Assembly (NCBI GenBank): GCA_048939245.1
Contig: JBHLPR010000015.1
Span: 1-42,277, forward strand
From: Promethearchaeota archaeon
GTDB lineage: Archaea > Asgardarchaeota > Hermodarchaeia > Hermodarchaeales > Hermodarchaeaceae
DNA length: 42,277 nt
Reading direction: 5' to 3'
Part shown: piece after piece, positions 6,033-10,803 of the stretch
Numbering within the stretch: position 1 is the first letter of the stretch
Layout of the letters: every line of letters starts with the position of its first letter
The notes under the pieces: model-generated
The model's database searches: none
What the model was told of the DNA's origin: nothing
The model's input: the letters and a program-made list of their open reading frames with translations, nothing else
Program-made: the position numbers and the translations under genes

Positions 6033-6129
6033 TGGCGCGGAGTAAGGGATTTGAACCCTTGCGACCAAAAGGTCACTGGATGACTCGTTTCAACTCGAGT
6101 CCAGCGCGTTACCGCTCCGCCAACTCCGC
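6033..6129 (-). tRNA. tRNA-Ser(CGA) with 12-nt intron at 37/38 (6082-6093), CCA encoded
   Basis: Anticodon arm CTGGA-CTCGAG[intron]A-TCCAG, long variable arm, TTCAAAT T-loop. Confidence 0.93.
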
Positions 6130-8393: not shown

Positions 8394-8471
8394 AGCGGGG
8401 TGGGGTAGCCAGGATATCCCGCGGGGCTCATAACCCCGAGATCAGTTGTTCAAATCAACTCCCCGCTACCA
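8394..8471 (+). tRNA. Initiator tRNA-Met(CAT)
   Basis: A1-U72 pair, consecutive G-C pairs in the anticodon stem, CAT anticodon, CCA encoded. Confidence 0.96.
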
Positions 8472-8515
8472 TTGCCTTTTTTCAGCGCATTTCCACAGTT
8501 CACGCAAAAGAAATA

Positions 8516-8656
8516 GTGGCCGTGCCCGACTGCCAGACTATACACCCGGCACACTTCCGGACCCTCAACTGGCAGCCGGATCCCACAACGGGAGATGTGC
8601 AATCCGGAACCAACCAGGCATCCTATCGGTTTGTGAATTGCACACCGCGTAGCCAC
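8516..8656 (-). ncRNA. Unidentified structured ncRNA (four-way junction)
   Basis: Stems GUGGCU/GGCCAC, GGUGUGCAAU/AUUGCACAUC, UCCCG/UGGGA, CCGGCUGCCAG/CUGGCAGUCGG; G-U pairs favour the minus strand; TATA-like TTTATTATAT (8691-8700) upstream and a T-tract downstream. Confidence 0.6.
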
Positions 8657-8811
8657 CCGGATCACGATTAAACAGTCGTGTCACCATTCCATATAATAAA
8701 TCCTAGAAAAACTCCACATCACTAATTGGTTTTTAGCTCCGAATACTATTAAGAAGGTGCTCCCTATGTCCTCAAAGCTCATGGGAGAAATAGAACAGGA
8801 ACCTTTCATCA

Positions 8812-10545
8812 ATGACCCCCAAAACGCCTCCATCACAAGCAAATCCCCTCGATTCTTACAAAGCGGAAGTCATCAACACCTTCAATAATATCGAAACTAC
8901 CATTGAAACCACACTCGGATCCCCAGCTGTCGACCACTATACAACAATCACTTTCATACCTGTTCCCCTCAAACTCAGCGGACCCCGATTCGGTGCCACA
9001 GAACGGAAAGATATTACAAACCAATTAATTCTCGAACTCTCCCAAGAACTACTCACTCAATACTCGAAATACCTCAACCTAATTATATGGCGCGAAGCCT
9101 ATCTCCTCCATCTCCCTGAAAGCATCCGTCAAATCCCCCAAGCCGCTGACCTTGGGTTGTATTGCTACTATAGATATGCCCTCAGAACAAAAAAGCAGAG
9201 AAATCAGTTCCTCCAACTCTGGCAAACAGTTTCACCACCAATCGATTACACATTTTATCGCTATTACCCGACTGCAGGGTTTGAATACTTCGACAATCTT
9301 GTTGATGGAAATTTTCTTAAAATGGCAAAAAAATGGTTCAAGCCTTTCATCCAATTAACAACACCCATAGGCCAGGAAATATTCACGGAGAGTCTTGAGC
9401 GATGGATGTTCAATTATCATCGTATATTACGTCCAATAGAAATCAAAATCCTTCGTGGTTTGAATGATTGCCTGACCTGCTCGCAAATAGAATTAGCAGA
9501 CACTCTCAAACTCCGTCAACCCACCATTAGTCAGGTTATCAAAAGATTAGCAAAAAAGCACCTATTGCGATTCATTATTTTCGAAAATTATCCTAAACTT
9601 GGACTCCAACCAATTACAGTCAAATTTACCTCAAAGAAATTCAAAGTAATTGATTCTTTGACGAGGTTATTTTCAAGAATTCGTTACTCACTAGCTATGC
9701 AGGTTTTTGATGAACATCTTCTAGCTTCCTTCCTGATTCCAACTGAAAGAATAACAAGATTTCACCGATGGTTAAAACAGGTCTCATCAAGCTTTGATCT
9801 TTCAAGTCCAGAGCAAGGATTAATTTCAGAAAGAATGCATGCACGCAACTTTAACCTTTACAATCCTCAAACAGGAGGATGGTCATCAGAGACTGAATCG
9901 CTTATTGAAAATTTTTCAAGACTAATATCTGAAAAATTAGCGTCACATCTACCCCCAATCAATTCATTCAAATTAGCACCACCTCATATCAAAAGAATCC
10001 TTGAATTAAAACCGCAAGATTTCATCTATATTCAAAGAGCGACTGAAGCCTATCTCACCACCAGACATGTGAAATTCATTGAATCTCATGAATTGCGTGA
10101 AGCTGGCTACAAAGAATCAGAACATATGGCTTATCGACGTCGTGTAAAATATTTAGAAAAAAGTGAACTAATTAGTCCACCACTTGGAATCGGATTATTA
10201 AACATTGGATTGAATGCAATAATTCATTTATATCTTGATTCTTCAAAAGAGGAAACACGACGGATTTTTACAGCATTTCAGCTATTTCCACATCTTTCTT
10301 GTATGTTGTTGAATAATGGAACCGGTGTTGCGTCTCTTCCTGTTCCTTCATCAATTGCAATTTCATTAACGGTATCTTTAGAAGCTCTTTTTAGATCAAT
10401 AGGTATTCCTGCAGTCTTAACATTGAAACCCGCATGGAATGCTTATGGATGGAATTTTCCTCCAGTCTTAAATTCAACGAATTATGATTTCGAAACCAAC
10501 AGATGGATTTGGACCAAAGACACGTTGCCCACACCACGAATCTAA
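8812..10545 (+). CDS. Large multidomain wHTH transcriptional regulator, paralog 1
   Basis: Central HTH SQIELADTLKLRQPTISQVIKRL; motifs shared with paralog 2 (PRFGA, WREA, AADLGLY, LERWM, HMxYRRR, NYDF..W.W...TLP). Confidence 0.85.
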   Translation: MTPKTPPSQANPLDSYKAEVINTFNNIETTIETTLGSPAVDHYTTITFIPVPLKLSGPRFGATERKDITNQLILELSQELLTQYSKYLNLIIWREAYLLHLPESIRQIPQAADLGLYCYYRYALRTKKQRNQFLQLWQTVSPPIDYTFYRYYPTAGFEYFDNLVDGNFLKMAKKWFKPFIQLTTPIGQEIFTESLERWMFNYHRILRPIEIKILRGLNDCLTCSQIELADTLKLRQPTISQVIKRLAKKHLLRFIIFENYPKLGLQPITVKFTSKKFKVIDSLTRLFSRIRYSLAMQVFDEHLLASFLIPTERITRFHRWLKQVSSSFDLSSPEQGLISERMHARNFNLYNPQTGGWSSETESLIENFSRLISEKLASHLPPINSFKLAPPHIKRILELKPQDFIYIQRATEAYLTTRHVKFIESHELREAGYKESEHMAYRRRVKYLEKSELISPPLGIGLLNIGLNAIIHLYLDSSKEETRRIFTAFQLFPHLSCMLLNNGTGVASLPVPSSIAISLTVSLEALFRSIGIPAVLTLKPAWNAYGWNFPPVLNSTNYDFETNRWIWTKDTLPTPRI

Positions 10546-10688: not shown

Positions 10689-10789
10689 AGGCATCCTATT
10701 ATGTGGCCCCCATCTCGTCCTGAACCATTCTAAAATTGAATTAAGAATTTATAGGCATCCTATTATGTGGCCCGCATCTCGTCCTGAAC
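10689..10789 (+). repeat. Two 37-bp direct repeats (10689-10725, 10753-10789; 1 mismatch; 64-bp period)
   Basis: AGGCATCCTATTATGTGGCCC[C/G]CATCTCGTCCTGAAC. Confidence 0.95.
10701..10733 (+). CDS. Micropeptide P2 MWPPSRPEPF (10 aa)
   Basis: GGAGG SD at 10687-10691; in-frame stop upstream, so 10701 is the only start. Confidence 0.65.
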   Translation: MWPPSRPEPF

Positions 10790-10803
10790 TTAATCAGAAA
10801 TAA
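10765..10803 (+). CDS. Micropeptide P3 MWPASRPELNQK (12 aa)
   Basis: Tandem duplicate of P2 with a weaker SD. Confidence 0.5.
   Translation: MWPASRPELNQK

Follow-up and report, generated by a model that had tools for sequence, protein, structure and literature searches.

Bacterial small RNAs (sRNAs) can be encoded divergently from their own transcription factors, as in the OxyR-OxyS and GcvA-GcvB pairs, and four-way junctions with loop-bearing arms occur in natural RNAs such as the hairpin ribozyme and U1 snRNA. In the archaeon Methanosarcina mazei, the loops of two intergenic sRNAs, sRNA154 and sRNA41, mask ribosome binding sites, and two loops of sRNA154 contact its targets (PMC5867862). 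Our searches of the literature and of Rfam yielded no structured regulatory RNA specific to Asgard archaea. The locus analyzed here lies in a stretch of 42,277 nucleotides (the window) from the Hermodarchaeia genome G000 (2.5 Mb, 122 contigs, 88% complete), and combines features of these systems in a conserved module, namely, an RNA, the divergently transcribed regulator 1, its paralogue regulator 2, and proline-rich micro-ORFs of 10-12 codons.

The RNA gene and its predicted fold

The structured RNA gene is located on the minus strand at about 8682-8507 (~170 nt), and the element is single-copy in G000. It coincides with a GC-rich island that had been pointed out in a reading of the sequence alone (the sequence-only reading), with a GC content of 0.58-0.59 across 8500-8650 versus 0.32-0.41 in the flanks. 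The minimum free energy (MFE) of the minus strand of 8505-8690 is -79.3 kcal/mol (z = -3.5), and none of 200 shuffled sequences was as stable. The predicted fold consists of a 5' hairpin, a closing stem (P1) and three arms (P2, P3 and P4), two of which have basal stems of 10-12 bp, internal loops and apical hairpins (Table 1), in agreement with the architecture proposed earlier. The extent of ~140 nt given in that proposal matches the junction core (8657-8515, 143 nt), whereas the conserved RNA reaches ~170 nt with the additional 5' hairpin. As the plus strand folds with a similar z-score, the fold of a single sequence cannot decide on which strand the RNA resides.

We evaluated the structure on an alignment of 12 sequences, comprising 10 RNAs from the genus of the window (genus 1) and 2 from its sister genus. 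Standard pairs account for 91.2% of the pair cells, but for only 30-44% after the partners are slid by 1-3 columns. Sixteen pairs are changed on both sides, compared with 7.4 +/- 2.0 in shuffled alignments (0 of 500 shuffles reached this number), and the covariation score is 0.307 versus 0.222. Furthermore, the alignment contains 115 G-U cells and 17 A-C cells, and the pairing drops to 75.7% if the opposite strand is read; thus, the RNA is on the minus strand of the window. The sequence-only reading had described a structured non-coding RNA on this strand, and both the clear covariation among the 12 homologues and the excess of G-U over A-C bear this out. We are highly confident that this is a genuine structured RNA gene that has not been catalogued.

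The compensatory changes are concentrated in P2 and in the basal stem of P4 (6 of 14 pairs), while the 5' hairpin, P1, the upper stem of P4 and P3 show only alternation among G-U, G-C and A-U pairs or no variation at all. In particular, the changes in P1 are one-sided (G-U to G-C, U-A to U-G), and the pairs 8-25, 9-24 and 10-23 of the 5' hairpin are kept in 12 of 12 sequences with G-U/A-U alternation. P3, with 3-4 bp and no compensatory changes, is the weakest and least certain helix. Because P3 never covaries, the four-way junction claimed in the sequence-only reading is likely but is not proven over a three-way junction. The single-stranded elements are conserved as well: 6 of the 10 genus-1 RNAs share one P2 loop core, GGAUGCCUC, from which the other four, including that of G000, differ at 1-2 positions, and the internal loop of P4 has the conserved strands UUGAGGG (8568-8562) and UGUAUAGU (8544-8537).

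Upstream of the RNA, all genus-1 loci carry the element GTGGAGTTTTTCTA. Its aligned counterpart in the sister genus is GTGTGGTTTATTAG, and in both genera 20 nt separate the element from the 5' hairpin. It looks like an archaeal BRE/TATA element and may act as the promoter, with transcription predicted to start near 8682. The TATA-like box suggested earlier, TTTATTATAT at 8700-8691, is specific to G000 and is not the conserved element. On the other hand, the T-rich 3' end noted in the same reading has counterparts in nearly all homologues, where T-runs occur 5-25 nt past P1, and in the sister genus a U8 directly follows P1. In the sister-genus RNAs (loci L030 and L031), the 3' tail CCACCCGCC could take the place of P1 by pairing with the invariant CGGGUGG (GGUGGCUG/CAGCCACC), which suggests two mutually exclusive closing helices there; this pairing was not seen in the genus of the window.

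Table 1. Positions in the window of the RNA elements, regulator genes and micro-ORFs
Feature	Position	Strand	Remarks
Promoter-like element, BRE/TATA-like, GTGGAGTTTTTCTA	8717-8704	-	All 10 genus-1 loci, nearly invariant; two with T for C
5' hairpin CACGA...UCGUG, followed by invariant linker UCCG	8680-8663	-	In the MFE structure
P1 closing stem, 5' strand GGUGGCUACGC	8657-8647	-	10 pairs, 94% of cells paired
Arm P2: 12-15-bp stem, variable upper part, apical loop	8646-8594	-	10 of 14 pairs changed on both sides
P2 apical-loop element AUAGGAUGCCU, consensus UUGGAUGCCUCG	8626-8616	-	Candidate anti-Shine-Dalgarno site
P3 short hairpin UCCC-GUUGU-GGGA	8593-8581	-	Predicted; 3 pairs, 94% paired
Arm P4: 10-11-bp basal stem, 3-bp extension, internal loop, 5-bp upper stem, loop	8579-8526	-	
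P1 closing stem, 3' strand GCACGGCCACU	8525-8515	-	12-sequence alignment
T-run TTTCTTTT	8513-8506	-	Likely archaeal oligo-T terminator (termination predicted)
Regulator 1, 577 aa	8812..10545	+	Divergent neighbour at every RNA locus in both genera
Micro-ORF MWPPSRPEPF with leader GGAGGCAUCCUAU	10689..10733 (ORF 10701-10733)	+	Conserved in the genus
Diverged second MWP-type copy with leader	10753-10803 (ORF 10765-10803)	+	
Regulator 2, 578 aa	10998..12734	+	Paralogue, 30% identical to regulator 1
Micro-ORF MYPQRDPFPS with leader GGAGGCAUG	12815-12762 (ORF 12794-12762)	-	

Comparison with known RNA classes and coding potential

Searches with the Rfam 15 covariance models, run at gathering and at permissive thresholds, returned no match at the element with E-values up to 10 and none in 8 homologous loci with E-values up to 1, tRNAs being the only matches. 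The match to a known family that the sequence-only reading had named as evidence against itself thus appeared neither in the window nor in these loci, and its remark that recognisable hallmarks of tRNA, 5S rRNA, SRP helix 8, RNase P and C/D boxes are lacking agrees with the negative results from Rfam, ARAGORN and the motifs of the alignment. ARAGORN and Rfam together identified four tRNAs in the window, among them a tRNA-iMet (8394-8471) that is convergent with the element, but nothing at 8507-8682, and the T-loop motif is absent from the alignment; we therefore rejected a tRNA, including an intron-containing archaeal one. A multi-intron, split or permuted tRNA was rejected as well, since the acceptor partner and the T-arm are absent and the P1 pairing is well supported. 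A tRNA gene at 6033-6129 of the window, left without a name by ARAGORN but scoring 53 bits with the Rfam tRNA model, carries insertions of 16 nt in its anticodon loop and of 12 nt close to the variable region, which suggests an intron-containing archaeal tRNA.

The locus is not matched by the models of archaeal RNase P RNA (RF00373) or of archaeal SRP RNA (RF01857). A full-length RNase P RNA (167.5 bits) is present at C31:5750-6136 of G000, and an SRP RNA of ~340 nt is encoded elsewhere in 7 of the relatives that carry the element; as the normal genes are located elsewhere, we also rejected a type-T-like RNase P RNA and a reduced SRP RNA. SRP RNA itself had no match in the 88%-complete G000 but is present in 12 of the 14 relatives in the genus, most likely owing to an assembly gap in G000. 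A 5S rRNA was rejected on the lack of any covariance-model match under the above cutoffs at the locus and in the 8 homologous loci, and self-cleaving ribozymes of the hairpin and twister-sister types on the lack of Rfam matches in the same loci. The boxes C (RUGAUGA) and D (CUGA) of C/D box sRNAs are not conserved in the alignment. In archaeal H/ACA RNAs, the hairpin with the pseudouridylation pocket carries a K-turn or K-loop in its upper stem, and the pocket is followed ~14-15 nt further 3' by an ACA/ANA box. Inspected by eye, the alignment lacks a conserved ANA after either arm (GCACRG in genus 1 and GCUCCA in the sister genus) and contains neither tandem G-A pairs nor a K-turn or K-loop, and the distance from the 3' pocket to the stem end is ~19 nt. 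A guide RNA of a mobile element (an IS110 bridge RNA or a TnpB/IscB omega RNA) was rejected since the element is single-copy, has MoxR, VWA, tRNA and regulator genes as neighbours, and is syntenic across species.

We also considered whether the element could be protein-coding. The sole candidate ORF, running from an AUG in the P2 loop to a UGA in the P4 loop, is shifted in three species by a 2-nt indel in the P2 loop, its AUG is missing from the sister genus, and no reading frame is conserved in the 12-sequence alignment. Coding on the opposite strand is disfavoured by the G-U asymmetry.

Distribution and gene neighbourhood

The MoxR gene near the element has close homologues (80-87% identity) in MAGs labelled Hermodarchaeota, Hermodarchaeum or Promethearchaeota, which places G000 in the Asgard class Hermodarchaeia. 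By BLAST, the element was found in 9 of the 14 other genomes of the genus with 69-81% identity, the copies in the sister genus being more diverged, and a covariance model built from the genus homologues recovered full-length copies in 2 of the 4 sister-genus genomes. The RNA is thereby present in 12 of the 19 Hermodarchaeia genomes, which are the same 19 genomes at the family, order and class scopes. An improved covariance model gave no match in any of the 132 other Asgard genomes, and the RNA is found only in the class Hermodarchaeia. In a scan of metagenomes with a loose pattern, one weak match (23.9 bits), which is GC-rich and probably false, was seen among the at least 80 loci listed. Five genomes of the genus lack the RNA while keeping both regulators and tRNA-iMet in intact synteny, and in G007, where the RNA is deleted, a remnant of the promoter box (GTGGAGATTTCTTTAAT) survives. 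The RNA thus dates back to the ancestor of the class, with losses later on, which makes it accessory rather than housekeeping.

In both genera, the RNA adjoins regulators 1 and 2 at every locus whose flanks are present; G001 has the RNA at one contig end and the regulator at another. In G011 and G013, the block of regulator 2, regulator 1 and the RNA is inverted relative to the VWA and MoxR genes and abuts tRNA-Ile/Ala instead of tRNA-iMet. The divergent arrangement with regulator 1 recognized in the sequence-only reading recurs in 12 of 12 RNA loci. That reading had also raised a co-occurrence with the regulators or with tRNA-iMet: the regulator pair accompanies the RNA in 12 of 12 loci, whereas tRNA-iMet does so in only 7 of 12. 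The RNA and regulator 1 share a control region of 125 bp. In the leader of regulator 1 (8781-8811 in the window, and in homologous loci) there is a conserved block GGGAGAAAYA...ACAGGAACC. A short out-of-frame ORF (8757-8888), which begins at an ATG further upstream, overlaps the start of regulator 1 in most genomes; these may be a leader or uORF element.

The two regulators

Regulator 1 has only weak MarR/HTH matches in Pfam. Its AlphaFold (AF2) model has a pLDDT of 88, and in the model residues ~200-577 form two tandem Lrp/AsnC-like modules, each comprising a winged helix and a RAM-like domain. The fused Lrp-like protein NirDL is the best structural match over the full span, and single Lrp/AsnC regulators match each half. 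Residues 1-205, modelled alone with a pLDDT of 91, match the catalytic domain of M1 aminopeptidases and thermolysin-like zincins (Z scores of 10.0-9.4 over ~170 residues), and the pseudo-peptidase TAF2 is among the structural matches. The HExxH motif is absent from the sequence of regulator 1, where the invariant motif is WREA. A peptide-binding, non-catalytic role of the N-terminal domain is a reasonable inference from the model. Regulator 2 is a fusion of the same kind, with an N-terminal zincin-like domain and two Lrp/AsnC-like modules. We detected no RNA-binding domain in the regulators, whose modules are of the DNA-binding Lrp/AsnC type. All of the regulator homologues retrieved by a word-based search come from Hermodarchaeia-type MAGs; the regulator-1 homologues number 52 clusters. 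A distant third paralogue with 23-25% identity is encoded at G000:C9:64650-66107.

Micro-ORFs and their complementarity to the RNA

Every genome of the genus contains proline-rich ORFs of 10-12 codons between the two regulators and, convergently, after regulator 2. They are of the types MWPPSRPEPF, MWPPRRPDPH.. and MYPxRDPFPS, with synonymous differences among the relatives in the genus, and most of their leaders have the form GGAGGCAUC. The comparison took in loci L112-L120 and L138-L142. Tandem duplications of the micro-ORFs are seen in G000, G008 and G002/G005. In the clade without the RNA the micro-ORF type MQWPPVRPEPTP is seen, and a further type, MYP[AR]PGDEPGPL, lies beyond tRNA-iMet in the window (8239-8201) and in G007 (L136).

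The loop elements of the RNA are complementary to the start regions of these micro-ORFs. In G000, the P2 loop AUAGGAUGCCU is a perfect 11-nt complement of AGGCAUCCUAU, which occurs twice, at 10689-10699 and 10753-10763, just upstream of the MWP-type ORFs, and the 5' strand of the P4 loop, GUUGAGGGU, complements ACCCUCAAC at 12790-12782, that is, codons 2-5 of the MYP micro-ORF (also in G003). The loop GUUAGAUGCCUCC of G010 matches GGAGGCAUCUAAC over 13 nt, and in G011, G013 and G008 the matches extend over 11-12 bp when wobble pairs are counted. For the sister genus, the internal-loop strand of P4 GGGGGGUACAU matches AUGUACCCCCC over 11 nt in G017, and the P2 loop, which differs there (CAUUUUUCU), complements another part of the start region of its own micro-ORF (AGAAAAAUG). 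Searched over the entire locus of 6-12 kb, the longest matches are those at micro-ORF sites in G000 (an 11-mer, twice), G010 (a 13-mer) and G017 (an 11-mer). Over all sites, the longest antisense match of an RNA to the start regions of its own micro-ORFs has a mean length of 8.3 nt and reaches at least 8 nt at 13 of the 18 sites, compared with averages of 6.2-6.5 nt and 0-3 of 18 sites in the sense, reversed and complement-only controls. An accessible region complementary to the Shine-Dalgarno (SD) and start sequences, as expected of an sRNA that masks ribosome binding sites, is thus conserved across species at these 13 of 18 sites. The unpaired probability of the P2 loop element is 0.35-0.70, compared with a mean over the RNA of 0.25-0.37; the complementary elements are about twice as likely to be unpaired as the RNA average, and the duplex energies between loops and sites are in the top 0.2-1% of local windows in most genomes. 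Complementarity of the RNA to the start region of regulator 1 is weak (6.6 versus 5.4 nt).

Several results limit how specific this complementarity can be taken to be. Only 5-7 nt of complementarity are present at one site in G004 and G014 (site A) and in G012 and G000 (site B). The form GGAGGCAUC is kept by 13 of 22 leaders in the RNA-bearing genomes versus 1 of 11 in the RNA-less ones. Shared ancestry confounds this correlation, as three of the five genomes without the RNA belong to a single clade. When RNA and target were swapped between genomes, the preference for cognate pairs was not significant (p ~0.09-0.2), so that these data do not demonstrate co-variation between loop and leader inside the genus. 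In energy terms, the target is not exceptional in G000 as a whole, where many sequence windows equal or exceed its pairing with the 17-nt loop probe, and GGAGGCATC occurs 31 times, several times ahead of ORFs, one of them enolase-like, so the site is not unique. Moreover, the micro-ORFs persist in genomes without the RNA, which is thus dispensable for them. On contig C62 of G000 (~14169, minus strand), an ORF starting MTNPYIIKEVRAMEILDS, which we take to be an enolase-like N-terminus, has the leader GGAGGCAUCUAAAC, that is, the extended motif of the MYP micro-ORF leaders of the relatives; this leader may represent either an additional target of the RNA loop or a sequence context favoured for ribosome binding.

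A possible mechanism and its alternatives

As the most likely mechanism we tentatively propose, at a probability somewhat short of even, that the RNA is a locus-specific antisense sRNA, with its P2 and P4 elements directed at the SD and start regions of the micro-ORF mRNAs, and that it is controlled by the regulator from the shared 125-bp region. The RNA would be expressed from its own predicted promoter up to the predicted oligo-T terminator and would act in trans within its own locus. Its P2 apical loop would pair with the SD region (GGAGGCAUC...) of the micro-ORF mRNAs, and its P4 internal loop with the start codon and the first codons (AUGUACCCCC / ACCCUCAAC). Together, the two pairings, if formed in vivo, would control ribosome access, with either repression or activation as the effect. 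Judging from its position, the divergent regulator probably controls transcription of the RNA. A larger scheme, which we think rather unlikely, is a three-part circuit unique to Hermodarchaeia, with the RNA as its post-transcriptional arm: peptides of 10-12 residues with the pattern M-[WY]-P-P-x-R-P would be sensed by the regulators, in a catalytically dead aminopeptidase-like pocket fused to two Lrp/AsnC modules; the regulators would drive the divergent RNA gene; and the loops on two arms of its junction scaffold would clamp the SD site and the start codon of the peptide mRNAs, closing a feedback loop. Should this circuit exist, it would give archaea a new type of module for signalling or feedback by small peptides.

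Other readings of the same data have to be weighed against the antisense sRNA. The real targets of a regulatory sRNA might lie elsewhere, in a global or stress regulon, with the micro-ORF complementarity being incidental or one target among many. The anti-SD-like CCUC in the loop core fits this explanation, as do the 31 occurrences of GGAGGCATC, the many genomic windows that pair equally well and the nonsignificant swap test. We nevertheless regard it as improbable, given the strict synteny with the regulator and micro-ORF module over two genera and an inversion, the enrichment of antisense matches at the micro-ORF starts relative to composition-matched controls, and the second, independent element (the P4 loop) that matches the same mRNAs. 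The RNA might also be a protein-binding scaffold or decoy that forms a ribonucleoprotein (RNP) with, or sequesters, regulator 1, regulator 2 or another protein, the loop motifs (GGAUGCC; AGGG/GGUA) being protein sites. Such a role would not explain the complementarity between loops and leaders, the regulators persist in the five RNA-less genomes, and their modules are of the DNA-binding Lrp/AsnC type, with no RNA-binding domain detected beside them; we thus consider it unlikely. Nonetheless, an RNA of this size with a rigid multi-helix junction resembles the RNAs of RNPs more than it does simple antisense sRNAs, and the invariant single-stranded motifs, the loop-E-like internal loop and the obligate adjacency to a winged-helix protein gene are in its favour. 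If the RNA does bind a protein instead, its rigid junction scaffold would constitute a new RNP.

We attach very little probability to a divergent member of a known housekeeping or catalytic class (H/ACA, C/D, multi-intron tRNA, 5S, SRP, RNase P, or a hairpin or twister-sister ribozyme), which is largely refuted. The element does sit among tRNA genes, the internal loops of its two arms superficially resemble pseudouridylation pockets or hairpin-ribozyme loops, and the 5' strand of P1 (GGGUGGCUGAGCGGU) presumably recalls the 5' part of class II tRNAs. Against these likenesses stand the negative Rfam and ARAGORN searches, the RNase P RNA elsewhere in G000 and the SRP RNA elsewhere in its relatives, and the absence from the alignment of a conserved ACA/ANA box, of the GA pairs of a K-turn or K-loop, and of C/D boxes; besides, restriction to one class and deletion in 5 of the 14 other genomes of the genus do not fit a housekeeping RNA. 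That there is no RNA gene at all is extremely improbable. The element would then act at the DNA level, as an operator array for the regulators, or be a degenerate coding remnant, and its location in a control region beside a DNA-binding regulator and the recurrence of GGCATCC at the micro-ORF leaders would be compatible with such a reading. However, the helix-specific compensatory changes and the 115:17 ratio of G-U to A-C reflect selection on one RNA strand, and the RNA is framed by the T-runs and by a promoter-like box at a fixed distance.

Comparison with known systems

From sequence alone, the element defines a well-supported new RNA family, for which the helices, the candidate target sites and an obligate partner protein can be named, and offers a concrete and testable example of regulation by RNA in the lineage of archaea that is closest to eukaryotes. 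As in the hairpin ribozyme and U1 snRNA, its helices meet in a near-perfect junction that leaves almost no nucleotides as linkers, and two of the arms bear conserved internal or apical loops. The RNA differs from both in having no Rfam match and other conserved loop nucleotides, in that the loop-bearing arms are not adjacent at the junction, and in lacking an Sm site or a cleavage-site motif. The arrangement of the locus resembles OxyR-OxyS and GcvA-GcvB, in which the sRNA gene is likewise head-to-head with a DNA-binding regulator across a short shared control region. Unlike these bacterial pairs, it is archaeal, its regulator joins a zincin-like domain to two Lrp/AsnC modules in a fusion that is undescribed, and it is position that suggests control of the RNA by this regulator. 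With sRNA154 and sRNA41 of M. mazei the RNA shares no homology in sequence or structure; it is larger, is predicted to form a multi-helix junction, is confined to Hermodarchaeia, and has as candidate targets micro-ORFs of 10-12 codons in its own cluster. What it has in common with these two RNAs is that it is an archaeal sRNA, predicted to be transcribed separately, with exposed loops complementary to SD and start regions.
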